64,000 nucleotides of DNA from an uncultured Phycisphaerales bacterium (GTDB lineage Bacteria; Planctomycetota; Phycisphaerae; Tepidisphaerales; Tepidisphaeraceae), in contig CAVWVQ010000003.1 in assembly GCA_963758525.1 (NCBI GenBank), positions 448,001 to 512,000 on the forward strand, in the 5' to 3' direction. Every line of letters starts with the position of its first letter. Position 1 is the first letter of the stretch. Under the pieces are notes generated by a model that was not told where the DNA came from, made no database searches, and was given only the letters and a program-made list of their open reading frames with translations. The position numbers were made by a program, and so were the translations under genes. This document shows positions 26,778-44,722 of the stretch, one piece after another.

Positions 26778-27320
26778 ATGCCGTTCATGACATCAACTCA
26801 GCGACGACGGGTGGTTCGGTGCGGGTGCTTGGCGGCGGTTGCGATATTGCTCCTTGCGGGCAGCAGCATGGCCGAGAACACGCCGCGGCGACAGAACCTC
26901 GCCTTGAACAGGCCGGCGTCGGCATCGTCAATTGAAAACGATGATCAGAGCGCCGCCAAGGCAAACGACGGCGATGACGACTCGCGCTGGTGCGCCGATG
27001 ACGAACCGGAGAATGGCGCGGAGTGGTGGCAAGTGGACTTCGGAAAGCCCACGGACCTGACTGGCTGCCAAATCACCTGGCCCTACGATGGCAAGCGATA
27101 CCTATATAAAGTGGAAGGGTCGTCTGATCGCAAGGCCTGGACTATGCTGAGCGATCAGACGCAAACCGCCGCGAGGACGCGCGTGCAGGAGTTGAAGTTC
27201 GAGAAGGCGAGGGGGATCAGGTTTGTGAGGATCACAGTAACGGGGTTTGAACAGGGATGCTGGGCAAGCATCTCTGAGGTACAAGTCTTTGGGCAAGAGA
27301 ATAACGCCGGAGGGCGATGA
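26778..27320 (+). CDS. Secreted F5/8 type C (discoidin) domain protein
   Basis: NLALNRPASASS, ANDG..SRW, WWQVDFG, RFVRI, SISEVQVFG. Confidence 0.88.
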   Translation: MPFMTSTQRRRVVRCGCLAAVAILLLAGSSMAENTPRRQNLALNRPASASSIENDDQSAAKANDGDDDSRWCADDEPENGAEWWQVDFGKPTDLTGCQITWPYDGKRYLYKVEGSSDRKAWTMLSDQTQTAARTRVQELKFEKARGIRFVRITVTGFEQGCWASISEVQVFGQENNAGGR

Positions 27321-29094
27321 TGAAGATCGCGATTGCATTGGTGGTGACGTTGATGGGCGCGATGTGCGGCACTGTCCGCGCAGCGGAGGTGGCTAAGCCA
27401 AACATTATTTTTGTCCTCGCGGACGATCTGGGCATCGACGGCGTCAGTTGCTACGGGGCCGACAAGCACCAGACTCCGCATATCGATGCGCTGGCGGCTT
27501 CGGGCACGCGGTTCCAGACCTGTTACGCTGCGCCGCTTTGCGGACCGTCGCGCTGCCTGTTGATGACGGGCCGGTATGCGTTTCACACCGGCGGCTTAAC
27601 CAATCAGTCGTGGCGCGGCGGAGGGCCAGGCGCCAAATCCGCCAACGAATACCCGATGGCAAAGCTGATGAAGGATGCCGGCTATGCCACGGGGCAGGCC
27701 GGTAAATGGAGGCAGATCGGCGAACTGCCGGGGAATTGGGGGTTCGACGAATTTCTCACCGACAACACTGCCAGCGGTTGGTACTGGGAAACCCACTACA
27801 ACAAAAACGGACAGGAACTGGATCTGCCGAGAGGCGCTTATGGTCCCGATGTCATTCAGGAGTTCACGTTTGACTTCATCCGCCGGCATAAAGACAAGCC
27901 GTTCTTTTTTTATTACGCGATGCACCTGGTGCACAAGCCGACGGTGCGCACGCCTGATTCGTCGCCCGGCACGACCAACGTCAGCGAACTGTACGACGAA
28001 AATATCAAATACATGGACAAGCAGGTGGGAGCATTGATTGACGAGCTGGAGAAGGATGGAATTCGGAACAACACGCTGATCCTTTTTGCCGGAGACAACG
28101 GGACCGCCACGGGGTACCCCAGTTCCGTCCACGGTCGAATGATCAATGGATGGAAGGGGAGCATGCTTGAAGGCGGCGCTCGCGTCCCGTTCATCGCGAG
28201 CTGGCCGGGCGTGACGCCGGCCGGCAAGGTCCTCGATGACATCGTGAGCTTTGCCGATCCGTATGTCACTTTCTCCGAGCTCACCGGCGCCAAGCTTTCC
28301 GATACGGTGAAGCCCGACGGCCAGAGCCTCGCTCCGCAGCTTCGCGGCGAGCCGGGCACGCCCCGCAAATGGGCATACGTGCAACTCGGCGAGAAATGGT
28401 ACCTGCGCGAGCCGGGATACAAGATGAACCAGTCGGGCGAGCTGTTTGACATGAGTGACGCTCCCTTCGTCGAAAAGCCCCTCGCGCCCCAAGCCGACAC
28501 CGACCAAAGCAAAGCCGCTCGTCAGCGCCTCACGACGGCTCTGGCGGAGCTGAATCCCGCCGCCGGCAAGACCGACAAGGAAGGACGAAAGGTCGGCCGC
28601 GGAATGAACGCCACCGCCAAGGCTTCGGAAGGGAAGCGTCCAGCCGGACCGTGGAAGACGGGTGATACCCTGTTGAACACCGAGGCTCCCCTGATCGCTG
28701 AGAAGGCGCTGGAGATATCGGCCGAGATTGACGCGAACGGAGCCGACGGTGTCATCGTTGCGCAAGGAGCGCCGCGGAGGGTTATGCCGTGTATGTGACG
28801 GGCGGGAAGCTGGCCTTCGCCGTCCGGGAGAAGAAAAAGCTGACGACGATCATTGCAAAGGAACCATTGGGTGGCGGCCATTTCACCGTGCGGGCAACTC
28901 TCCATAAAGATGGGGCGATGGCTCTTTTGGTCGACGAAGAACCAGTGGCCGAGGGCAACGCCGGCGGCCCGATTCCCCAGCAGCCCAAAGGCAGGTTTTC
29001 GGTGGGCACAGCTAACGAAACCGCCATCGGCGACTACGATCCGGCTAATGTGTTCAAAGGAAAGATCACGAACGTGACGGTCGCGGCGGAATGA
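27317..29094 (+). CDS. Formylglycine-dependent sulfatase with C-terminal LamG-like domain; frameshift near 28770
   Basis: PNIIFVLADDLG, CGPSR, GKW, DNG, EGGARVP. Confidence 0.9.
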
Positions 29095-29207: not shown

Positions 29208-30428
29208 TCACACCATCAAAATGCTCAGCACCGATTCCGCAAAGGCGGCCCGCAGCTCCATTACATCAGCCGGTGAGAGATCGCGCATGGCGGACGGAAG
29301 CTTTTTCTCTCGCTGAATGCCGTAGCGGAATGCCGAGAGAAACAGCTTCGGCTGGTCCTCAAACTCCACTTCGACTGTTTCTGGAAACACCGCGTCGAGG
29401 ATCGTCACGCCTTGGTCGGACACTTCCATCAGCTCCTCCACCCAGCGCAGGACCACGTCGAGCGGCGCCTTGCGCGGAAACCGCTGCGCCACCAGCGCCA
29501 TCAGATCGCGGCGCGTCGGAGCGTTCATGAGCAGCGCGAGGAAGAGCCGATGCTCCGGCTCGGTGATCGTGCTCCGCAGGCTTTTGATGACGTTGCGCCG
29601 GACCTCTTCGGCGAGAGTCGCCGCGACACCCTCAGCCAGGACGCGGTGCTTCTTTTCAAAAGCCTTGATCGCCGGCTTCCAGGCATCCAGCCGCTGCAGA
29701 TACTCCATGCAATGCTGCAGCACGGCGAACCCGCGCTCGAAATCCAGGTCGGCGATCATCTCCATCACCAGATCCGCGTAGCCCGAGTCTTCGACTTGCT
29801 CGAGCACATCGAGCAACTGCTTGCGACGCATCGTCAGCAAGTCGCTGTGGAGCGGATCAATCGCCATGTGCGGCGGCAGATAGTTCAACTGCGCCCCCGT
29901 TCCCGGATCGTGCTGCGTGCGGACCACGACGGTGACCGAAGGCGAATCCAGATGGAACAGCGAATGAATGGTCTGCTGTCCCGAATCAATCGGCACTGTG
30001 CTTCCCGCCTCGAGGATCGTGATTTTCTTCATTCGAAGATTGCCGACCTGCACCGCGGGGGTGACCGGCCGGGCATTTTCAAACGTGTAGTGCGCGTGAA
30101 TGCTCGACCCATGCATGACATGGAACGCGCCGGAGAATGCGTGCTGATGGATGGCGGTCGTCCCGTCCAGCCAGAAAAGGAGTTGGATGTAGAAGCGAGG
30201 ATGGCTGTACACCACCAGCTCGGGCTCGCCGAAGGGGGAATCGGTCTGAAAGGGATGCTCCTCGCGGAGCAAAAAATCGCGCATCAGCGCCGCAAGCTCC
30301 ACCCGCTTTGAGGGCGGCCGCTCCGCCAGCGCCGCACGGGCGATCCGCGGGAACTTCGCGAGAGAAAAATTCTCCCGCTTCCATCGCTCCAGGACGGTGT
30401 CCCCGAGCTTCTTGAAAAAAGCGTCCAT
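29208..30428 (-). CDS. Hypothetical protein with cupin-like N-terminal domain
   Basis: TAIHQHAFSGAFHV...IHSLFH. Confidence 0.7.
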   Translation of the reverse strand: MDAFFKKLGDTVLERWKRENFSLAKFPRIARAALAERPPSKRVELAALMRDFLLREEHPFQTDSPFGEPELVVYSHPRFYIQLLFWLDGTTAIHQHAFSGAFHVMHGSSIHAHYTFENARPVTPAVQVGNLRMKKITILEAGSTVPIDSGQQTIHSLFHLDSPSVTVVVRTQHDPGTGAQLNYLPPHMAIDPLHSDLLTMRRKQLLDVLEQVEDSGYADLVMEMIADLDFERGFAVLQHCMEYLQRLDAWKPAIKAFEKKHRVLAEGVAATLAEEVRRNVIKSLRSTITEPEHRLFLALLMNAPTRRDLMALVAQRFPRKAPLDVVLRWVEELMEVSDQGVTILDAVFPETVEVEFEDQPKLFLSAFRYGIQREKKLPSAMRDLSPADVMELRAAFAESVLSILMV

Positions 30429-30675: not shown

Positions 30676-31287
30676 TCACAGCCCGGGTTTTTCCCAACTG
30701 CTGAACACAAACTCACTCAGCGGCTTGCGCGAGCGAGGCTGGCCTTCCATCTTCTGAAAATGCTCCGGCAAAGTCTGCGGATCTCCCAGGTAGCCGACTG
30801 CCCAGCACGCCACCGGCTCGAAGTCGTCGGGAACTGCGAGCGCGGCATGGAGCGCGGGCTTGTCAAAGCCCGCCATTCCGTGCGCGTGCAGTCCCAGAGC
30901 CGTCGCCTGCAACGCGAGGTTCGCACACGCCGCCCCGACATCGTGCTGGGCCACGCTGTTGGGGCTCTTGTTATGGCTGAACGTTTTTTTGGCGAAGGTC
31001 GCGAACAGCACCGGCGCGCTCTTCGCCCACATTTGATTCATCTGCATCAGCGCGTTGAAAATCTTCGTCCACGTCTCATCCCCTTGGCGGCCCACCACAA
31101 ATCGCCAGGGCTGCTCGTTAAACGACGACGCCGCCCATCCGGCGGCGGTAAACATCGTCTTCAGATCCGATTCGCTGATCTGCTTGTCGGCAAATGCCCG
31201 CGGACTCCACCGCCGGAGAATGAGGTCTTCGACTGGGGTGTCGGTTACGCCGTGTTTGAGTTGATCGAGCGGGGTCAGTTCTGCCAT
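30676..31287 (-). CDS. Nitroreductase family protein
   Basis: RRWSPRAF, AASSFNEQPWRF, QATALGL, MAGFD. Confidence 0.93.
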   Translation of the reverse strand: MAELTPLDQLKHGVTDTPVEDLILRRWSPRAFADKQISESDLKTMFTAAGWAASSFNEQPWRFVVGRQGDETWTKIFNALMQMNQMWAKSAPVLFATFAKKTFSHNKSPNSVAQHDVGAACANLALQATALGLHAHGMAGFDKPALHAALAVPDDFEPVACWAVGYLGDPQTLPEHFQKMEGQPRSRKPLSEFVFSSWEKPGL

Positions 31288-31528
31288 GAGATTTTGCACC
31301 GTAAAAGAGGGTGGGTTTCCGTTCTTGAAGACGCAGGTGATGATAGGCCGGTGCTTTTGTGGTCGGAAACAAACGCCAATTTCAGCCGCGGAGGACACTG
31401 GTTGGACATGTCTTTCTGGCCAACCGTTTTCTCGCCAAGCCTCGGATTTTCTTCGGAACTATGCACGAGCCTCAACGCTCGGGTACCCACCATTCGCCGT
31501 GCGGTGAACGGTGTGGATCCTTCAATCC

Positions 31529-31832
31529 TCAGGAGCGCGGTCTTCCATTGGCGATCGTGCCTTGCGGTATGAAGAACGCGGAACACAACAATGGCGTCTG
31601 GTCTGAGAACAAAAAATATGCGGTAGGGGAAGTGTTTTGTGAGTACGCGCCTCACCTCCGGTCGGCGGCGGAGCCGTCGATGCTGACGCGGATTGGCTGC
31701 CGCGGCTTGAATCGCAGCCTGGATCTCAGCCAGGAATCTGTGTCCCAACCCTGTTTGCCGCGCGTTGTACCAGATTGCAGCGTCAGTGATATCCGCTTCG
31801 GCCTGTGCGCGAATGATGAGCCGGTAGCTCAT
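31529..31832 (-). CDS. RelE/ParE family toxin; probable frameshift just before the stop
   Basis: AEADITDAAIWY, GLGHRF, FPYRIFF, VLHTAR. Confidence 0.85.
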
Positions 31833-32062
31833 GGACGGAGTTTGTCCTGAATGCGGGCTTTGACCTGCTCCCACGGACTTCCGGCGTCAGGGTTCTGTTG
31901 ATAATCGGTCAGAGCAGCGTCCAGGGCAGCGGTATCGGCGTCGCTCAACTCGCCGTTGTCAATCCAGGCTTCACCAAAGAGTTCGTCCAGCTTTGCTTGT
32001 ATCTCCGCCAGGTCGGTGGGGGCAAGCTTGGGCAGCTCTGCAAGTATTTCGGTCTTGCTCAT
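31829..32062 (-). CDS. Addiction-module antitoxin
   Basis: ILAELPKL...SPWEQVKARI; 4-bp overlap with the toxin. Confidence 0.85.
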   Translation of the reverse strand: MSKTEILAELPKLAPTDLAEIQAKLDELFGEAWIDNGELSDADTAALDAALTDYQQNPDAGSPWEQVKARIQDKLRP

Positions 32063-33009: not shown

Positions 33010-33060
33010 AGGTTATGTTGGTGCGATAGGAGATCGCGCGCCCGAACGCGTGCCGGAAGA

Positions 33061-33275
33061 GTTGCAAATTGCGGATTGCAAATATTGCAAATTGCAAATT
33101 GCAAATTGAAGGAGTGAGTTCGTCTGCCACGTGCACGCGCCATCCCATGACGTGAGCTGCGCTACGCGTTGGCGGCTCCGTCCCCATTTTGCAATTTGCA
33201 ATTTGCAATTTGCAATCCCCAACTCCCCGGCGTTGCTTTCCCTTGGTGCCTTCGTGCCTCCGCGCCTTCGTGCCT
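33061..33275. repeat. (TTGCAAA)n/(TTTGCAA)n heptamer inverted element followed by GTGCCTTC octamers
   Basis: Direct reading; lies between the two permease genes. Confidence 0.88.
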
Positions 33276-33283
33276 CTCCTGTT

Positions 33284-34156
33284 TCACCCATAGTGCACCC
33301 ACTTCCGGCTCGACCAGAACGCGATTGCGGTGAGCGACAGAATGATCGCGAGTTGAATCCATGCCATGGCGCTGGCGTAGCCCATGTGGACGTATCGGAA
33401 GGCGTTGTCGTACAGATACATCGTATAGAAATAAGTGGCGTTGTTCGGGCCGCCCTGAGTCATGATGTAGGGGATGGTGAGCATCTGCACCATGCCGATC
33501 AGGGCCATGATGAGATTGAAAAAGATCACAGGTGACAGCAGCGGCAGCGTCACGCTCCACAATCTTCGCCAGCGGCCGGCGCCATCGATGTCGGCGGCTT
33601 CCATCAACTCCGTTGGCACATCCTGCAAGCCGGCCAGGTAGATGACCACGGTATTCCCAACGCCCCACAGACTCATCAGCGCCAGCGAGGGCAGCGCCCA
33701 GCGCGCGCCGAGCCATTGCGGGCCGTCGATGCCGATCGTGCCGAGCAGGTGATTGAGCAGCCCGAGTTTTGAATTGAAGATCCACAGCCAGAGCATTGCC
33801 GACGCGACGGCGGGGATCAGCGAGGGGAGAAAGATGATGGTGCGAAAGATTCCCTGACCCCTGATTTTCGCGTTGAGCAGCAGCGCCAGGCCGAGCGAAA
33901 CGACCATGCCGCCGGGAAGGGCCATGGCGGCGTAGCACGCGGTGTTGCGAAGGCTCCGCCAGAAGAGGGGATCGTGGAGGAGCCAATGATAGTTTTGGCC
34001 CCCGATGTACATCGGGGGCTGCGCGAGCGGGTAGTCGCAAAGGCTGTAATAAAAGGATAAGCCGATCGGCACCGCGAGGAAGAGGCCAAATCCGATGAGC
34101 CAGGGACTGACAAAGGCAAGTCCCTTGGCGAGATTGCGGAATTCGTTGCGGGTCAT
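33284..34156 (-). CDS. Carbohydrate ABC transporter permease
   Basis: YLAGLQDVP.EL.EAADIDGA, MGYASA. Confidence 0.95.
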   Translation of the reverse strand: MTRNEFRNLAKGLAFVSPWLIGFGLFLAVPIGLSFYYSLCDYPLAQPPMYIGGQNYHWLLHDPLFWRSLRNTACYAAMALPGGMVVSLGLALLLNAKIRGQGIFRTIIFLPSLIPAVASAMLWLWIFNSKLGLLNHLLGTIGIDGPQWLGARWALPSLALMSLWGVGNTVVIYLAGLQDVPTELMEAADIDGAGRWRRLWSVTLPLLSPVIFFNLIMALIGMVQMLTIPYIMTQGGPNNATYFYTMYLYDNAFRYVHMGYASAMAWIQLAIILSLTAIAFWSSRKWVHYG

Positions 34157-35781
34157 GACTTGCGCCCAACATCGACATTCTGCGTGGCGATGTTTTGTCT
34201 TCCCCCCTCTCCCGGTAATGGAGAGGGTTGGGGTGAGGGTGATTTGAGCAGTCGAATGCCGCTGGTGTTCGAAGTCACCCTCACCCCGTCCCTCTCCCGG
34301 AGTACCGGGAGAGGGGGAAGACGCACTGGGCAGTTCTCGCTCAGTTGCATCTGCTCATTGCGAAGCGCGTCGATGCGCTGCTGGCGATCCCATTTTTCCT
34401 GGAGTCGTTCCTGCGCAGCCTGCAGCGCCGCTTGCGGATCACTGTCGAGCCGGCTCACGCTCTGGGCGGCGTCGTCGAGTTCCTTCTTCAATTGCTCCCA
34501 CATCGGCGTCTGCGGTGCAAACCTCGCATTCGGGCTGGCGGAAAGCTCCTCGAACACACTGATGTACGGATTGGGATGACGGTCGAGAAATGCCTGGCTG
34601 ACGAGCCGGAGCGGCGAACTTTTGCAATGGAGCGTGCAGAGTTTTTCCATGACATCCTGCCGGGCGAGATAGGCCATGAATTCAAAAGCCGCATCAGGGT
34701 GACGGGCGGCGCGAGGGATCACCAGCGTATCGACGGAGCAATAGCTGACGTTCGCCACTCCCGCGACGGCCGAGGGGAATGGGGCAACCGCCCATTCAGA
34801 GTTGTCGCGCCGGTCGGGAAGTTCATTCTCCCGCTCGCGCGGCACTTTCGCCTCACAGATCGACGGCCCCCACGGCGTCGTGTGAGTCAATCTGTAGAAG
34901 TAATTCGCCATCCACGGCCCCTGCTGCTCCATCGCCACTTCACCGACAAGAAATGGATTCTGCGGCGAATCGAATCCGCCGGCGGCATCGTGGAACTCGA
35001 CGGTGGCGCCGGACCCAAGCCGTTGGGAATAGTCGGCGATCCATCGGAAGGCCGCAATGTTGGGCGCGGAACCGAGCGTGAAGCGATTGGATGAGGAATC
35101 AAACCAACTGCCACCGAACCAGACGGGCGCGAAGTCGATGTACCAGCCGGGCTCCATCGGCAGATATCCTGCCCGCTTGATGCGCCCATGCTGGTCGATC
35201 ACGTCCAGCGCCTTTGCGTATTGATCCAACTCGGCCAGCGTGCGCGGCGCGCGATTCGGATCGAGTCCCGCGGCGACAAGCTTTGCCGCGCTCTGGCGGA
35301 AAATCCGTTTGTTCCAGTAGAGGGCCACGCAGGCCGGCGTATTCGGAAGCGCCCAGAGCTTTCCCTCATACCGGCATGCGTTCCAATAGACCGTTTTGTA
35401 AGTCTGCGAGTCGATCCCGTACTTTCGTGCCAGCTCATCCAAAGGTTGCAACGCGCCGAGGCTCGCGAACTCGGCCGTCTGCGGGTCCCACAGCCCCGCG
35501 ATGTCCGGCGGCACGCCAGCCGCGGAGGCGATCAGCAGCTTCTGATCGAGCTTGCTCATCGACAGGTAGCGGACGTAGATGTGCTTTTGCGACCCGACGC
35601 TTCGATTGAAGTCGTCGACGATCAGCCGCATCTGATCCGCTTCGGCGCCGACCCATTTTTCCCAGTATTCGACGACGATCACATTGGGTGGAATTGCCGG
35701 CCGGTGATGTGCGCCGAAGACCAGGAACCACGCGGCGAGACCGAGAAGCAAAGTGAAGATCAGGCGTTTGACGAGAATCAT
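34153..35781 (-). CDS. Sugar ABC transporter solute-binding protein with REP-derived C-terminal extension
   Basis: GVPPDIA, GKLWALP, ALYWNK, GEVAM..QGPW. Confidence 0.9.
   Translation of the reverse strand: MILVKRLIFTLLLGLAAWFLVFGAHHRPAIPPNVIVVEYWEKWVGAEADQMRLIVDDFNRSVGSQKHIYVRYLSMSKLDQKLLIASAAGVPPDIAGLWDPQTAEFASLGALQPLDELARKYGIDSQTYKTVYWNACRYEGKLWALPNTPACVALYWNKRIFRQSAAKLVAAGLDPNRAPRTLAELDQYAKALDVIDQHGRIKRAGYLPMEPGWYIDFAPVWFGGSWFDSSSNRFTLGSAPNIAAFRWIADYSQRLGSGATVEFHDAAGGFDSPQNPFLVGEVAMEQQGPWMANYFYRLTHTTPWGPSICEAKVPRERENELPDRRDNSEWAVAPFPSAVAGVANVSYCSVDTLVIPRAARHPDAAFEFMAYLARQDVMEKLCTLHCKSSPLRLVSQAFLDRHPNPYISVFEELSASPNARFAPQTPMWEQLKKELDDAAQSVSRLDSDPQAALQAAQERLQEKWDRQQRIDALRNEQMQLSENCPVRLPPLPVLRERDGVRVTSNTSGIRLLKSPSPQPSPLPGEGGRQNIATQNVDVGRKS
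34202..34317. repeat. CCCTCACCCC/CCCTCTCCC REP pair inside the coding sequence
   Basis: Inverted arms; sister copy at 39945-40061. Confidence 0.88.
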
Positions 35782-35896
35782 CCGTGAGCCGTCCGCAGGG
35801 CAGCTTGCCACGAGCTGTGCAAGTCAAACTGCTCGGAGAGGCTGAACTCCTGACACTGCGAGCCGCGGCATTCAGCACCGTTTCAGCAGTTGCGAT

Positions 35897-36926
35897 TCAT
35901 ATTTGGACGCTCGGCAGATTCGGAAAGAGCTCGCCCGCTGGTTCGGCAATTCGTTCTAAGACGCGCTGCGCCAGTGCAGTAAACTGCCGCTTGCAATCCA
36001 ATACGGCGCCGGCGTGGCCGCCGATAGCACCGTCGGCAGCGGTGAGGTGAAACATCGGCTTGCGCATCTTGGGCCATTGGCATCAGGCTCTTAAAATGCT
36101 TGAGCATCGCAAGCTGGTTTTGATCATCATCAGCTGATGCCGGCTGCCCATGATTTTCGAGGACCTCCTCCGCGTACGTGCTGGGGATACGATTCGCCCA
36201 CTTCAAATAAGATTTCACCGGACGATTCTCGCGAACTGATGGATTCAGAAGGACATACCCCAGTGGCATCATCCTCCCCAACGGGGTCGGCAGGCCACGC
36301 GGTATTTTGCCAGCCAGCCGTGTCTTCCACCCCAGTCTCCAATCCCGAAGAGTGGGCCCGAGGTTTCGCAGGCCCTGTAGGGAAAACAAGTCCGCGCCCA
36401 ATGGAATTACAACAAAATCCGCAGCGACCAACGCGGCGCGGTTCATGGCGCCGATATTCGGCCCTACGTCGATCAATACCAGATCGCTTTCGTTCTTTTC
36501 CGCAGCGGCTTTCATCACTCGATGAAAGGCTGTGACAACGCGGAAGCCATCACCAGCGATCGGAGCCTTGTCATCAAGGCACTTTCCCCATGCCTCGGAC
36601 AACCGATCTTCGAACGTGCTCAAACCCAAATCCCCTGCAATGAGATGAAGGCGTCGGTCTATGGTGATGGGTTTGGGTTCGCGGATGTCACCGAGACTTT
36701 CGATGAGCGGACTGATCGAACCCAATATCGTGTCGGAATGATCGCCTTCCGGCCATAATTTCTCTATCTCATTCTCATTCAGGAATATGCTGGTTAGATT
36801 GGATTGAGGATCCAGATCAACAGCGAGCACGCGCTTTCCCATGTCGCGAAACATCCACGCAAGATGATATGCCATAGACGTCTTTCCGACCCCGCCTTTG
36901 TTATTGAAAAAGACGATCGTTTTCAT
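35897..36926 (-). CDS. Orphan ParA/Soj-family ATPase; frameshift near 36062
   Basis: FNNKGGVGKT, DLDPQSNLT, IDVGP; corrected C-terminus KPMFHLTAADGAIGGH...QI*. Confidence 0.9.
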
Positions 36927-38101
36927 TGACGTTTCCTCACGATCATGGCCAGATGATTTTCTCCGACGATGTAGTCGAGGTTCGGGCTCCCATTCTTCTT
37001 TAAGACGTCCTTCGCAAGAACAATTCCGCGCCCAAACCTATTGGCAAATCCTAATGTCTTCGCTGCCTCAGCCAGCACAGGATTTCGGTACGAAGTCCCG
37101 TTTGGAAACTGATCCGCTGTCAGATCACCATAAAGTGAGCCGGGATTCTGGATTTCGATCCTGTCTGAGAAATGATTGATCGATATGGGCGTAGTCGAGG
37201 TGTCGTAATTCCGATGAATCACCGCGTTGACAAATAGTTCATGGAGCGCCAAGTGAGGATAATCCGCAACTACCGCGTCGGTCAGGTCGTCGCGACGCAC
37301 TGGTCTATATTTTGCGAGTTCTTTCGCGAGAAAATCCAAGTCCCTCATTACAGTGATCAGATCACCCGTAATCCTCCGCTCTGTGATCGGGGAATCGGCT
37401 TGCGTCAGACCATCATATTCGACGTATTGTATGTAAGCACCCGGAAAAAAGGACATCGGGTCCTTTCCGAAGAGGAGAACGGCACCGTTAGTCGGTGCGG
37501 AAGTGTTTCGATTGTAGAGACGCAAAGAGCCGAGCTGCTCCTCCGTCGTCCGCCCATTTTCTTGCATGACCGTCTCGGAAACGGCGGACGGAAGATAGAC
37601 TAGCTTAAAAAGCACCAAGGCGAGATCGTCAAGAGATGCCCCCACACATCCACGCGTGTCCCAGGTTCTCGCCTTGTCAACTCGGCGCTCTTCCAAACGC
37701 CGCTCTTGCTCGAGGGTAGCGACGCTGGCCGTCGGACCAGTGCGAATCCACACTGTCTGTTTGTAGCGGACCGGTGGCATACTGCTAGGGCGGACCTCGA
37801 CAACCGCGATGTCCTTGCCAGAATGCGTCGCCTTGAAGACATGCATGTCAGGCACTGGCAAAATCTGGCCGTTGTTTCGATGGCTAGCCAATGCTTCGAG
37901 TAGTCGCTCGTCTATTCGAGCACCGGATGGACTCCCCTTCTTGTCCACCCCCACGAAGAGATACCCGGAGAGTCCCGAACTCGGCATATCGTTGGCAAAC
38001 GCGCAGATCGCCTTGCAGAACTTATCGCTGTCATCGAGCGATATGGTTCGTTCGACCCGGAAGGACTCGATGTCGGCAAGCAGGTTTGCAAGGTCGGTCA
38101 T
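36923..38101 (-). CDS. Schlafen/AlbA_2 domain + HATPase_c_4 (GHKL-like) protein
   Basis: ESFRVE, AFAND, GYLFVGVD; ELFVNAVIHRNY, RIEIQNPG, YRNP, GRGI. Confidence 0.88.
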   Translation of the reverse strand: MTDLANLLADIESFRVERTISLDDSDKFCKAICAFANDMPSSGLSGYLFVGVDKKGSPSGARIDERLLEALASHRNNGQILPVPDMHVFKATHSGKDIAVVEVRPSSMPPVRYKQTVWIRTGPTASVATLEQERRLEERRVDKARTWDTRGCVGASLDDLALVLFKLVYLPSAVSETVMQENGRTTEEQLGSLRLYNRNTSAPTNGAVLLFGKDPMSFFPGAYIQYVEYDGLTQADSPITERRITGDLITVMRDLDFLAKELAKYRPVRRDDLTDAVVADYPHLALHELFVNAVIHRNYDTSTTPISINHFSDRIEIQNPGSLYGDLTADQFPNGTSYRNPVLAEAAKTLGFANRFGRGIVLAKDVLKKNGSPNLDYIVGENHLAMIVRKRQ

Positions 38102-38341
38102 TTCAATACTCCGAGCAACGCAGTCTCCGTGTCACAAGCGGCGGAGCGCGGCGTGCATTGAGTGTGCTAGCCTGGCAAAACGAAATGAAAACGGATCAAG
38201 CATACAGTTTTGATCTTATGCGATTCGGGTGAATGGGCAAGGTCGCCTCGGCGGTGCGGCGGTGCTTTCCACCAAAAAATACTGAACGAAAGCTATTCAC
38301 CTGATCCACCGATCTGCGCTCGGCTGTAAAATAAAGTCGTA

Positions 38342-38779
38342 ATGCCCTACCGCTTCCTAGCCGACGCCCTTGTGGTCTTTCATCTCTCGTTCGTCGGTTT
38401 TGTCATCTTCGGAGGACTGCTGGTCGTGCGCTGGCCGCGGATGGCGTTCGCGCATTTGCCGGCGGCGGCGTGGGGCGTGTTCATCGAGTGGTCAGGGCTG
38501 ATCTGTCCGCTGACCTATCTGGAGAATAATTGGCGCAGGCTGGGCCACGTCGAGAGCTACCAGGGCGGGTTCATCGATCATTACATCATGCCGGTGCTCT
38601 ATCCCGACGGGCTGACGCGCAACATTCAGTTCATTCTCGGCGGGGGAATTCTGGTTCTGAATATCACCCTCTACGTGATCACCGTGCGGCGCCTGCGCCG
38701 GATACGCGGGGATTCGAGGGGCTTTGCGATCGGGCCTCAGATAGCGCCAGATCGGCCAGTGCATCAGCCGCGAAGTTGA
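38342..38779 (+). CDS. DUF2784 family membrane protein
   Basis: LADALVVFHLSF, ICPLTYLE, GGFIDHY. Confidence 0.88.
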   Translation: MPYRFLADALVVFHLSFVGFVIFGGLLVVRWPRMAFAHLPAAAWGVFIEWSGLICPLTYLENNWRRLGHVESYQGGFIDHYIMPVLYPDGLTRNIQFILGGGILVLNITLYVITVRRLRRIRGDSRGFAIGPQIAPDRPVHQPRS

Positions 38780-39905
38780 CGTCCTGGGGGGAGAGGAATG
38801 GCCCGAAGCTCAAGCGAGTGGTGCCGCCGAGATCGGCGGTTCCGATGGCCTTGTGCGCGAGCGGAGCGCAATGCAGACCCGAGCGGGTGAGGATTCCGAA
38901 GCTGGCTTCGAGCGCGGCGGAGAGTTCCTGCGGATCGAAGCCGTCGATCCGCACGGAGAAGACGCCGGCGCGGTCTTTCACCCCGCGGGGGCCGAAGAAA
39001 TGCAGGCCTTCGACGTCGGCCATTCCGTCGAGGAATGTGCGCACGAGATCCATTTCATGGGCGGCGAGCTTTGCGATGGTCTGATCGAGCACCCACTGCA
39101 CGCCTTGCGACAGGCCAATGATTCCGATGGCGTTGTGACTGCCCGGCTCGTATTTGTCGGGCATGAATTCGGGCTGGCGATCATCCTCGCTGACCGATCC
39201 CGTCCCTCCCTCGCGGATGGTGCGAAGCATTTTTTCGATGCCGGGACGGATATAGAGAAATCCGGTGCCAAGAGGGCCGAGCAGACCTTTGTGACCGGGA
39301 GCGGCCAGCAGATCGATCATGTCCGCCTGCACGTCGATCGGCAGATGCCCGGCCGACTGAGCGGCATCGACGATGAACGGCACGCCTGACTCGCGGGCGA
39401 TTTTGCCGATCTCCCGGATCGGCTGCACCGTTCCCGTCACGTTGCTCACATGCGTGATCGCGATGAACCGCGTGTCGGAACGGATCGCGCGGCGAATGTC
39501 TTGCGGATCGACGAGGCCGCTGGCGGGATCGACCTCGATGCGCGTCTGCGTGATCGCGCCGCGCTCCTCGAGGGCGCGAAGCGGACGGAGAATCGAGTTG
39601 TGATCGATGTGCGTGCAGATCGCGTGGCCGCCGCCCGCATCGGCCAGACCCTTGATCGCGAGGTTCAGTGCATCGGAGCAGTTGAGCGTGAAGATGAAAT
39701 GCTCAGGGCGCTCGCCATTGAACAGACGGTTAAGCCGTCGACGGCATTCAGAGATTTCCGCGCCGGTTTCGGTCGCCTCCTGATACGCCCCGCGTCCGGC
39801 GCTGGCGCCCAGTTCGGTCGCGTAGCGCTGCATTGCCTCCAGCACCTCCCGCGGCTTGGGGAAGCTGGTGGCGGCATTGTCCATGTACAAACGGCGGGGA
39901 GACAT
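38679..39905 (-). CDS. Cysteine desulfurase-like class V aminotransferase
   Basis: YMDNAATS, HNSILRP, DAAQSAG, PGHKGL, RSGLHCAP. Confidence 0.93.
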   Translation of the reverse strand: MSPRRLYMDNAATSFPKPREVLEAMQRYATELGASAGRGAYQEATETGAEISECRRRLNRLFNGERPEHFIFTLNCSDALNLAIKGLADAGGGHAICTHIDHNSILRPLRALEERGAITQTRIEVDPASGLVDPQDIRRAIRSDTRFIAITHVSNVTGTVQPIREIGKIARESGVPFIVDAAQSAGHLPIDVQADMIDLLAAPGHKGLLGPLGTGFLYIRPGIEKMLRTIREGGTGSVSEDDRQPEFMPDKYEPGSHNAIGIIGLSQGVQWVLDQTIAKLAAHEMDLVRTFLDGMADVEGLHFFGPRGVKDRAGVFSVRIDGFDPQELSAALEASFGILTRSGLHCAPLAHKAIGTADLGGTTRLSFGPFLSPQDVNFAADALADLALSEARSQSPSNPRVSGAGAAR

Positions 39906-39944
39906 AGAAATTCCTGTAGCGGCCTCAGATCTTCGGACACCCTA

Positions 39945-40061
39945 CCCCCTCGCCCGGTACGCCGGGGGAGGGCGGTGGTGAGGGTGATTGGGAACGACGA
40001 TAGCGTCTGGTGCTCGAAATCACCCTCACCCCAACCCTCTCCCGGATTACCGGGAGAGGGA
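39945..40061. repeat. CCCTCACCCC/CCCTCTCCC REP pair
   Basis: Sister of 34202-34317. Confidence 0.85.
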
Positions 40062-42171: not shown

Positions 42172-42837
42172 CTACGAAATGCTTGGGGGCGACCGATCGG
42201 GCCTGAAGGCGGCAATGAGTTGCGCCGCAAGACCCTCGCGCACCGCCCCCATTTCCGGCATTCGGTCGCCCAGCAGCCGCTGCAGAGACGTCGCGGATTT
42301 TCCGGGCAAACCACAGGGGACGATCAGATCGAAATAGCGCAGATCGGTTGTGACATTCAAGGCCAGCCCGTGCAGTGAAATTCCCCGGCTGATGCGAACC
42401 CCGATGGCACAAATCTTTGCCACAACGTCGCCGTCGTCCAACCAAATTCCCACGGCGGCGGGATCCTTTCGGGCGGCGATTCCGAACTCGGCCAGCAGCG
42501 TGATGACGGCATCTTCCAACCGATGGACATACGCCCCGACGGACAAGCGATGGGAATTGAGCCGGACGATCGGATACGCCACGATTTGGCCCGGGCCGTG
42601 AAAAGTGATGTCACCGCCGCGATCGCTCTTGACCAGTTCGACGCCGAGTTTGGCGAGCTGCTCCTCAGATGCCATCAGATTTCGCTCGCCACCGTCGCGG
42701 CGTCCGAAGGTGATCACCGGAGGATGTTCGACCAGGAGGATTTGCTCTTCGCCCCCCGCGAGAACCTGCGCGTGCGCTCTCTCCTGCTGCGCCCAGGCAG
42801 CGCGATAGTCCAACTTTCCAAGGTCATGGACTTTCAT
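42172..42837 (-). CDS. lipB: Lipoyl(octanoyl) transferase
   Basis: VEHPPVITFG, RGGDITFHGPGQ, KICAIG, HGLALN, IVPCG. Confidence 0.96.
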   Translation of the reverse strand: MKVHDLGKLDYRAAWAQQERAHAQVLAGGEEQILLVEHPPVITFGRRDGGERNLMASEEQLAKLGVELVKSDRGGDITFHGPGQIVAYPIVRLNSHRLSVGAYVHRLEDAVITLLAEFGIAARKDPAAVGIWLDDGDVVAKICAIGVRISRGISLHGLALNVTTDLRYFDLIVPCGLPGKSATSLQRLLGDRMPEMGAVREGLAAQLIAAFRPDRSPPSIS

Positions 42838-43038
42838 GTAAAACGGGTTTCCAACCCGTTCTGGCGATATCGCAGTAGCAAGCCCGCAATCCGCGCAACG
42901 AGCCAACGTTCCGAGGTCCTGGACCCTTCAAGTAAAACGGGTTTCCAACCCGTTCTGGCGATATCGCAGTAGCAAGCTCGCAATCCGCGCGATTCGCCGT
43001 TCCAGTTGCTCTACGAACGGGTTGGAAACCCGTTGTAC
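42838..43038. repeat. REP cluster GTAAAACGGGTTTCCAACCCGTT (two ~58-bp direct copies and one inverted copy)
   Basis: Copies near 42838 and 42931, inverted copy at 43016-43038. Confidence 0.88.
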
Positions 43039-44722
43039 AACGAGAGGTCCAGTTCGGCGAAGACATCGTCGTGCGCGTCCATCTCGGCGATCTGAATCTG
43101 CTCGAGTGATCCCATTGTACCTCCGGCGGCGAGTGACTCGGCGATGGTCGTTGCCCGGTCGAATCGGGTGGCGTGTCCGCTGAAGCGTTGGATGCCGTAA
43201 TCTGCCGCGCCCTTGGAGTGAACGACAAAAGGCCAGTCGCTGGCCTGCAGGAGCAGCAATTCGCGGGCGCCTCGCTGCAGCATCTGGCGGATCGAGTCGT
43301 TTCCCCGCCAGGGAAGTTGCTGGAGCATCGCGAGCAACCGCGTTTCCGCCCGATGCTCGGTTTCCCACATCCATCGGGTCTGCTCATTGAGCCAGACGCC
43401 GTGGTTTCCCTGCTCGCCCCAGCTTCCTTCAGGCAGTCGCATGACCTTGTCCGGCGGCGGATCGCGAAGCGCTTCCTCGGTCGTGGCGAGCGTGACGGAC
43501 CGGTCGTGGCTGAGCGTGAAAATCACGTCGCGCAGAAACTGGGGACCTTCGAACCACCAATGGCCGAAGAGCTCGGCGTCGAACGCCGCCACGCAAACGC
43601 CGGGTTTCCCTGCCAATGAGCGGTGTTCCCGTAGCGACTCTCGCACGATCTGGCAAAAATGCTGCGTATGCTCGAACAGGGTTGCGTGAACGTCCTGGGG
43701 AACGTAGGGCTCCTTGTCGCCGAGCGAAGTGCCGTGGTCCGTCACCCGGTGATAGCGCAGGCCGTGATCGGCACTTTTGCGATGAAAGTCCAAATACGAG
43801 GCCGCGCCAGGATATCCCACGGCCCCGCTCCACACCTGCTCGCTGATGATGGGCTGGCGGGCCAGCGCATAGCAACTCGGCGGCCCCGGCTCGCTTGCCA
43901 CGCCAACCGGTTCCATCGGATTGCGCCAGCCGCGGCCCGCGTCCCAATGCAGCTGCGCTTCGCCCACCGCGGAGAAACGCTTGCCGTGCATCGTTCCCAG
44001 CGGTTGGCCCTGCCTCACCAGGTCGGAGTCAACGCAAAAATGCGTCAGCCCGGCACCGGCGATCAGAGTTTCGAGGCCTTCGCGAGATCGCGGGCGATCA
44101 TCCAGCACCGGCGGCATCCAATGCGTACAGCCCGGGCGATAAGCGCACTCCGGAAGCCACATTCCAGTGCTGACCGCCTCACCGAGAATACGCCGGCTCG
44201 TCGCAGCGCCGATGGCCAATTGGCGCGGATCATTTCATCGTTGCGCAACAGCGGCAGGTAGGGATGCGTCGCCGGCCCGGTGAGGATCTGGATGTGTCCC
44301 TCACGGCTGCGGGCGGCAAATTCAGCGGGAATATCGCGTTTGATTCTCTCGAAATGGGCGGCTTTGCGCTGGAACCAGCTTTCCCAACGCTCCGCCAGAT
44401 GCGCGAATTGCTGCTGACCGGCGCGCTCGAAGTCGGCACGGTCGCGGGCAGCTCGCGCATGTTGTTCGGCCAGATACTTCGGGAATTGCTCTTTGAACCA
44501 TGGATGAGCTAATTGCTCCAGAAGCACCGGCGTCAAGCCGACGGTGAATCCCGGCCGGCATTTGTGCAGCGCGAGTTCGCCGATCAAATCGAGCAACGGG
44601 AGGTAGGCTTCCGCGGCGGCTTCAAAGAGCCAAGCCTCGCCATGAGGCGTCACGCCGTGATGGAGCACGTAGGGAAGGTGCGCATGGAGAACGATGCACA
44701 GCTTTCCGAGCGACTCGCTCAT
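43011..44722 (-). CDS. GH57 1,4-alpha-glucan branching enzyme; frameshift near 44220
   Basis: HAHLPYV, WLPEC, FDAELFGHWWFEG, ASDW. Confidence 0.92.

Follow-up and report, generated by a model that had tools for sequence, protein, structure and literature searches.

What might a Schlafen-GHKL protein and a ParA-like ATPase, encoded by two overlapping genes on the same strand, be doing together in the genome of an uncultured Phycisphaerales bacterium (Tepidisphaeraceae)? The window, which is the whole stretch of DNA that was analysed, covers 64,000 nucleotides of contig CAVWVQ010000003.1 (assembly GCA_963758525.1, positions 448,001–512,000, forward strand), and all coordinates below refer to it. 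An earlier, sequence-only reading regarded the pair as a candidate defence module that belonged to no named system. The feature is real and conserved, but both the pairing and its fused protein have names in the accessible text of two preprints: it is a member of the predicted ParA-effector kind, as subtype (iii) (Li, Burroughs and Aravind, bioRxiv 10.64898/2026.10.19.760177), and its fused protein is of the type called Schlatpase (Kuzmenko et al., bioRxiv 10.64898/2026.05.29.728809). Because the pairing has already been predicted in print, the credit here is for refinement and not for discovery. The one new, testable point is a covariation of two residues, T19 and K27, in the Schlafen active site. 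The features of the locus are:

36923..38101, minus strand: Schlatpase gene, 392 aa; AlbA_2 domain (residues 13–124), linker and GHKL/HATPase_c_4 domain; E12-x4-E17-x-T19 and K27; GHKL E288/N292
36923..36926, minus strand: ATGA stop/start overlap of 4 bp, closely preceded by GAGG, which resembles a ribosome-binding site
35897..36926, minus strand: parA, coding for a ConB1-type ATPase that resembles ParA/Soj; the intact form has 343 aa, and the assembly shows a frameshift near 36061
36060..36063, minus strand: site of the 2-bp parA frameshift, inside a GC dinucleotide run
38021..38068, minus strand: variant Schlafen active-site stretch, codons 12–27, with E12, E17, T19 and K27

The upstream gene encodes a Schlatpase, with PF04326 and PF13749 in one chain. 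Pfam recovers SLFN_AlbA_2 at residues 13–124 and HATPase_c_4 at residues 305–386, each with an E-value of 9e-15, and the confident AF2 model (mean pLDDT 91) matches the folds of DIP2311 (PDB 3lmm), SLFN11 and PDK4 or PDK-type GHKL proteins. No HTH was found in the 392-aa protein, the last element of the model being a GHKL strand, and the earlier description of an AlbA_2-GHKL gene lacking a C-terminal HTH therefore stands. The SAFAN-like Schlafen box (C33-A-F-A-N37-D38) is present together with G46 and G51 of the Gly/hydrophobic core strand, and so is the GHKL catalytic E-x3-N (E288/N292), which recurs in 120/120 close rows.

The downstream frame, opening at 36926, matches AAA_31 (Pfam, E 1.5e-28), so the orphan ParA that had been described as running to 35897 is real, but the description passed over a frameshift near 36061 that is taken up below. 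Its motifs are intact: N9, Walker A K10-G-G-V13-G-K15-T16, D37-x-D39-x-Q41 and Walker B D148...D153. Among pair members, K10 is kept in 102/106, K15 in 103/106 and D153, N9, V13 and Q41 in all 106, while two basic C-terminal positions are also retained (R232 is R or K in 100/106, and K276 is K or R in 106/106). The Asn before Walker A, the Val within it, the Lys that is not Arg and the Gln two residues after DxD are the marks of PriB1/ConB1 proteins. The AF2 model is confident (mean pLDDT 93.5) and matches DIP2308 and Soj. With ParA/Soj of ParABS it shares the fold (Foldseek, Soj 2bek, E 9e-13), the deviant Walker A, DxD and Walker B; however, it is ~80 residues longer, scores 66 bits against an NCBIfam ParA_partition cut-off of 180, has the uncharacterised DIP2308 (3pg5) as its closest solved structure, and is adjoined by no parB. 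ParB_N has four matches in this genome, all distant from the pair (the nearest ~1 Mb off), and the Pfam scan of 25 flanking ORFs found no mobility gene, as the sequence-only reading had supposed on both counts. Among solved structures, the two proteins best match DIP2311 (3lmm) and DIP2308 (3pg5), whose locus numbers within a single genome differ by three; crystallised but uncharacterised, these may be a remote and less tight form of the Schlafen-ParA association.

Li, Burroughs and Aravind predicted the coupling of ParA to a histidine-kinase/Schlafen fusion, and the accessible text of their preprint reports no experiment for this subtype. The locus resembles their subtype in its ParA gene and Schlafen-GHKL gene, which form a conserved two-gene neighbourhood with a Schlafen/GHKL-fold effector, in its ConB1 marks, in its wide spread and in the bias of the closest loci towards Planctomycetota and Myxococcota. 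It differs in that no upstream wHTH gene is seen at the pair here. Thr/Lys variants, an HTH-bearing offshoot without ParA and insertion into BREX or Hma operons go unmentioned in that accessible text. No experimental test of a Schlafen-ParA pair was found in the mostly open-access literature searched.

Within the Schlatpases, RzAgo (SLFN-pAgo) likewise combines PF04326 and PF13749, its E314/N318 corresponding by spacing only to E288/N292 here. RzAgo carries an Argonaute core that is absent here, and the sensor would therefore be the separate ParA. 'ParA' as a whole word has 0 occurrences in the text of Kuzmenko et al. The PADLOC pAgo model matches Schlatpase residues 26–325 (E 2e-19), but the PADLOC check proposed earlier yielded no catalogued system: no system in v2.0.0 was matched by both proteins over their length, and the partial matches were to pAgo/Aga and to ~40 residues of PDC-M28B. 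The domain architecture is also that of the pSlfn-HisKinase class, the commonest at 34%, for which the available text mentions no ParA partner (PMC13056530). Cash and other defence-linked Schlafens are similar in that Schlafen-ATPase genes are tied to BREX and RM and, in Cash, tRNA is cleaved by an E-D-K centre; Cash differs in its activation by cA4 through Csx15, and ParA is not named in the part of that source available to us (PMC13462974). Schlafen-GHKL proteins form the largest bacterial Schlafen class, 58.6% of 103,533, according to the accessible text of Kuzmenko et al., and the published work compared, as far as its text was accessible, reports activity for no stand-alone member. The compact pair with its obligate-looking partner is a reason to suspect that screening genes singly can overlook a partner that is needed.

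That the two genes belong together, on which the earlier proposal depended, is borne out by scans anchored on either gene, each comprising the best 80 loci and not a random sample. A Schlafen-GHKL gene lies directly upstream of ParA in 77 of the best 80 ParA-anchored metagenome loci, and ParA lies directly downstream in 53 of the best 80 Schlafen-anchored genome loci, in 14 named phyla and hence at least 14. The same arrangement was found in 1/11 viral Schlafen loci. The 4-bp overlap, confirmed here as ATGA at 36923–36926 as first described, is kept in 102/131 pairs among the matches listed. Near-duplicates (L090, L158 and L166) were dropped before counting, as were four 'neighbours' that proved to be pieces of the Schlafen gene itself, and the 26/131 pairs that were too incomplete for alignments A3 and A4 were left out of them. 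A taxonomically drawn sample of the class agrees with the best-80 scans on pairing: the spread is patchy, with this ParA type in 22/301 genomes of the class and in 1/46 others of the same family, and a Schlafen sequence lies directly upstream at 23 of the 24 ParA places in the sample, at full length in 19, this copy included. Between loci, the identities of the Schlafen gene and of ParA are correlated (r 0.63; 0/999 permutations as high), and both genes have the same nearest neighbour in 58/106 pair members. On the ParA tree, T and K partner types are mixed (11 changes), which indicates that partners have sometimes been swapped.

No conserved third gene was found, the largest neighbour cluster covering 9/131 loci among the matches listed, and the flanks vary by locus. 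The pair has a lower GC than its flanks in 38/41 long loci, which together with the varying flanks fits a horizontally moving two-gene cassette. The low GC reported earlier for this copy also holds: G+C amounts to 27/60 bases at 36721–36780, and the pair as a whole has 0.540 against a genome mean of 0.607, a value equally low in 0.4% of 12,920 windows of equal length. GC3 is 0.60 and 0.59 in the two genes compared with 0.73–0.81 in four flanking genes. The pair had been described as inserted among housekeeping genes, which is only loosely true, its flanks being a sugar ABC solute-binding protein, DUF2784 and a cysteine desulfurase. In both genomes of the same genus the best matches of these flank genes are widely separated or fall on separate contigs, and for that reason no empty site could be shown; none was found in the five relatives examined (G004 among them), nor was a terminal repeat or target-site duplication found around the pair. 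Elsewhere, the order gyrA/pair/serC at L040 and L090 places the cassette inside a housekeeping operon, and the order aroA/parA/cmk at L103 (aroA and cmk named by eye from translations) places ParA alone in another; a mobility gene is the first neighbour in neither case.

The link of the pair to defence genes is real but moderate. First neighbours were PADLOC-positive (E<=1e-15) for 26/191 ORFs at 119 loci, among the matches listed, against 4/101 control ORFs, giving a Fisher p of 0.008 that is overstated by kinship between loci, which makes related loci non-independent, and by a control drawn from one class only (7 of the 101 ORFs from G004). The four control matches were all partial and generic, and six neighbour matches were dropped as helicases, methyltransferases, a RidA-like protein or unchecked. 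The remaining 20 proteins are encoded by BREX, Hma or RM genes and adjoin the pair in 15/119 loci. At some of these loci the pair stands between core defence genes, for example PglX/pair/PglZ (L128), PglX/pair/BrxC (L163) and HmaA/pair/HmaB (L057). The association with defence islands that the sequence-only reading proposed to check is thus found in a minority of loci but not at this copy, where the sole PADLOC match among 22 window ORFs is the generic cysteine desulfurase. In the wider flanks of the 12 closest loci (124/182 ORFs scanned), a complete candidate system (HEC-01) was found at 2. In operons of BREX- or Hma-like make-up, at L057, L121, L151 and L170 and at L108, L119 and L120, the pair was also seen to follow immediately on an HmaA-like helicase or an HmaB/PglXI-like methylase.

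Homologues without ParA offer a comparison. Among the best 80 genome loci, 27 are unpaired, and 22 of these are Bacteroidota proteins with a C-terminal extension of 34–156 aa; the paired Schlafen proteins terminate at the GHKL domain. Ten extensions were tested (nine from genome loci and one viral), and an HTH family was found in 6 and Fic-like_C in 3. On the tree the ParA-less Bacteroidota homologues group in a single clade that lies within the paired forms (FastTree support 88, and 99 for the inner 22 rows). The alternation is consistent with two alternative modules that face the DNA, either ParA or a fused HTH, the exchange of HTH for ParA being essentially one event. Intact HTH-less Schlafen genes are also found without an adjacent ParA, at L083 (with 8 kb of room) and L042 (607 bp).

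We assign a rough probability of 0.45 to the reading in which the pair is a conserved, translationally coupled anti-phage or anti-plasmid module whose ParA senses DNA and switches on the Schlafen-GHKL protein. To the domains, motifs, pairing, overlap, patchy spread, minority placement in defence operons, T19–K27 covariation and HTH-versus-ParA alternation seen here, this activator model adds properties of related proteins, namely the tetramerisation and tRNA cleavage of the Schlafen-GHKL part of RzAgo and the non-specific DNA binding of ParA. By these analogies, the ParA-like ATPase would sense foreign or abnormal DNA in trans via its basic C-terminal surface, and the Schlafen RNase would stay off until that sensor fires. 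ATP at the GHKL domain may then build a tetramer that forms the two-lobed Schlafen RNase, in keeping with the ATP-driven tetramerisation and tRNA cleavage described in the accessible text for Schlatpase (Kuzmenko et al.). The predicted direction of regulation is that ParA, presumably in physical contact with the Schlafen-GHKL protein, switches on the latter, which in its active form would likely cut tRNA using a relocated K27. The outcome would be abortive infection via tRNA cleavage, serving as a back-up where the pair sits in BREX, Hma or RM operons. Against the activator model stand the 104/119 loci (among the matches listed) that, like this copy, have no BREX, Hma or RM neighbour, the several pairs in housekeeping operons (gyrA-serC, L040), the swapped partners on the ParA tree, the Thr found here in place of the essential Lys of Ex4(E/D)xK, and an E. 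coli test of four architectures including Slfn-HisKinase, in which, according to the available text, the two protecting genes were DUF262 and Ig-like fusions and not members of the Slfn-HisKinase class (PMC13056530).

Li, Burroughs and Aravind proposed the opposite regulation, as far as their accessible text goes: ParA would be a first line that coats invader DNA and restrains Schlafen, the effector being released as a suicide back-up. The retained basic C-terminal positions of ParA favour this proposal, as do loci with an intact ParA and a missing or truncated Schlafen gene (L099, L103, L205, L215 and L219), which are expected if ParA is useful alone or acts as an inhibitor. We nevertheless consider it rather unlikely, given that HTH-less Schlafen genes occur without an adjacent ParA (L083 and L042), that a whole clade lacks ParA, and that the RzAgo Schlatpase is described in the accessible text as off by default and in need of activation (Kuzmenko et al.).

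For the Schlafen active site, an acidic triad of E12, E17 and D53 had been put forward, and this assignment has to be corrected: the functional triad is E-E/D-K, D53 occurs in just 27/106 pair members, and the position of the lysine is taken by Thr19. The stretch reads E12-x4-E17-R18-T19 and departs from Ex4(E/D)xK, the motif being Ex4(D/E)xK in RzAgo and Ex4ExT here. E12 is conserved in 106/106, E17 in 104/106 and the GHKL N292 in 106/106 pair members. The acid of the family is at column 54 (77/106), where this protein has Lys and 107/120 close homologues have K or R. Thr19 is found in 120/120 close rows and in 73/106 pair members, and at a mean lineage identity of 51% it is, judging from the alignment, fixed and not drifting. 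Mutants of related proteins, as given in the accessible parts of the sources, indicate that the lysine is the residue that matters and that the third acid is dispensable: in SLFN11, K216A is inactive and D252A retains activity (PMC9482658), in Cash, K24A abolishes cleavage (PMC13462974), and in RzAgo, D72A raises protection (Kuzmenko et al.).

Lys27 is present in 74/74 non-K19 rows compared with 13/32 K19 rows of the paired set. Among representatives of 50%-identity clusters it is present in 30/31 T19 compared with 13/52 K19 proteins, the remaining T19 protein having Arg; these figures come from the 86 representatives that could be scored with a T-rich alignment profile, 64/150 being without a scored column. 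On a tree built without residues 18–30, the T/K state changes 9 times, at least 5 of the changes being forced by well-supported branches. The AF2 model has a strand at residues 16–19 and a helix at 25–37, so that K27 starts the helix after the catalytic strand. Taken together, these patterns suggest that K27 is the relocated catalytic lysine of the Thr19 proteins. The covariation predicts that activity may be present in many Schlafens that look dead when judged by Ex4ExK. We found no mention of the Thr19/Lys27 variant in the accessible text of the literature searched, the ParA preprint and PMC13056530 included.

An alternative is that the Thr19 lineage is nuclease-dead or non-defensive and forms an ATP-dependent RNA- or DNA-binding module for stress or regulation. 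The essential Lys is lost, the column-54 acid is lost in most close homologues, close relatives are seldom beside defence genes, and, according to the available text of PMC13056530, defence neighbours are absent for 30.4% of prokaryotic Schlafens. These points are opposed by the invariance of E12 and E17 in all 74 non-K19 rows together with the fixation of Thr19, by K27 following each switch to Thr, by T-type pairs in BREX/Hma operons (L057, L094, L121, L151, L163 and L170), and by the dispensable third acid in the accessible accounts of SLFN11 (PMC9482658) and RzAgo. On balance, we judge a dead or non-defensive module unlikely.

More speculatively, and in our view doubtful though possible, Schlafen RNases may repeatedly have evolved a second design, Ex4ExT-x7-K, in which the lysine has left the first strand for the beginning of the helix that follows. 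A stand-alone ParA would replace the fused HTH as a DNA sensor in trans, and the tRNA cleavage that it gates would back up BREX, Hma or restriction, with the K19/Q288 and T19/E288 subtypes non-redundant. Non-redundancy would follow from the two genomes that carry both subtypes: G141 (L209 and L221) and G229 (L204 and L222) each have one T19/E288 and one K19/Q288 pair, 36–40% identical. The sister lineage combines K19 with Q288, and GHKL E288/N292 is intact in the Thr19 lineage. A rule of 'reciprocal inactivation', by which K19 goes with Q288 and T19 with E288, was considered for this pattern. The paired set comprises 71 T/E/N and 31 K/Q/Q of 106 members, and the class loci 11 T/E and 8 K/Q of 19; the rule was rejected because these counts reflect essentially one tree split and because it fails family-wide, where K19 occurs with E288 in 29/52 and T19 with Q288 in 5/31.

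Whether this copy of parA is intact bears on the locus itself. In the assembly the open frame runs from 36926 to 35883, departs from the ParA sequence after residue 288 and ends in an unrelated tail of 59 aa, while the conserved ParA C-terminus sits in another frame, ending at 35897. A Logan record, P0122, holds an intact 343-aa ParA with the conserved C-terminus, and a short-read contig from run X1 (315 bases, depth 3.1) has two extra bases behind 36061 that restore the frame. We observed that a sulfatase (27317–29094, plus strand) and a GH57 branching enzyme (43011–44722, minus strand) also each seem split over two frames. The X1 run has two further single-base indels relative to the assembly, one of them an extra base at 28768 in the split sulfatase, and with the split genes this suggests that indel errors are common in the assembly. 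The parA frameshift is very probably an assembly error. The contrary reading, a decaying pseudo-operon with a real frameshift, can point to a break that is present in the assembly itself and to restoring evidence that consists of one depth-3.1 contig and one protein record, the record differing from the X1-implied residue at the site, so that the two may come from different strains. It is quite unlikely, since the X1 contig agrees with the assembly over 313 matched bases with zero substitutions, the further X1 indels include the one at the split sulfatase, and the conserved C-terminal motif is kept in 117/120 homologues.

A toxin-antitoxin (addiction) cassette in which ParA is the antitoxin, and which spreads selfishly and brings the host no gain, would account for the tight coupling, the GC below that of the flanks in 38/41 long loci, the unrelated flanks with no conserved third gene and the ParA-only remnants, but it is very unlikely, because Schlafen genes persist without an adjacent ParA, the pair occurs in just 1/11 viral loci and the putative toxin gene stands first. 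More generally, each gene is found intact without its partner beside it, which argues against a plain toxin-antitoxin pair. The ParA-regulated Schlafen module of the sequence-only reading thus survives as a conserved pair with a plausible defence role, while the HTH-less homologues without adjacent ParA (L042 and L083) weaken the version in which a ParA antitoxin keeps a toxin in check.

Around the genes themselves, neither a sigma-70 promoter (1 promoter-like site versus 1.9 expected) nor a terminator signal (5 terminator-like sites versus 2.8 +/- 1.9) rose clearly above shuffled sequences. A joint of 34246 to 40009 in X2, with a side of 23 bases and 17 further letters in the middle, was put down to a repeat artefact. 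Short interspersed intergenic repeats were noticed, from ORF translations and two-place X2 contig matches, at ~34250–34320, 40010–40060, 33013–33291 and 42800–43390. A 406-aa ORF (29208–30428, minus strand) has no Pfam or PADLOC match at the thresholds used. A ParE-family toxin gene (31278–31874, minus strand, E 4e-9) lies ~4 kb from the pair, and a short ORF just upstream of it may be its antitoxin. Finally, the source genome contains a second, distant Schlafen+GHKL locus (L010, G000:C3:1559967-1561065), in which the two domains are in separate open frames.
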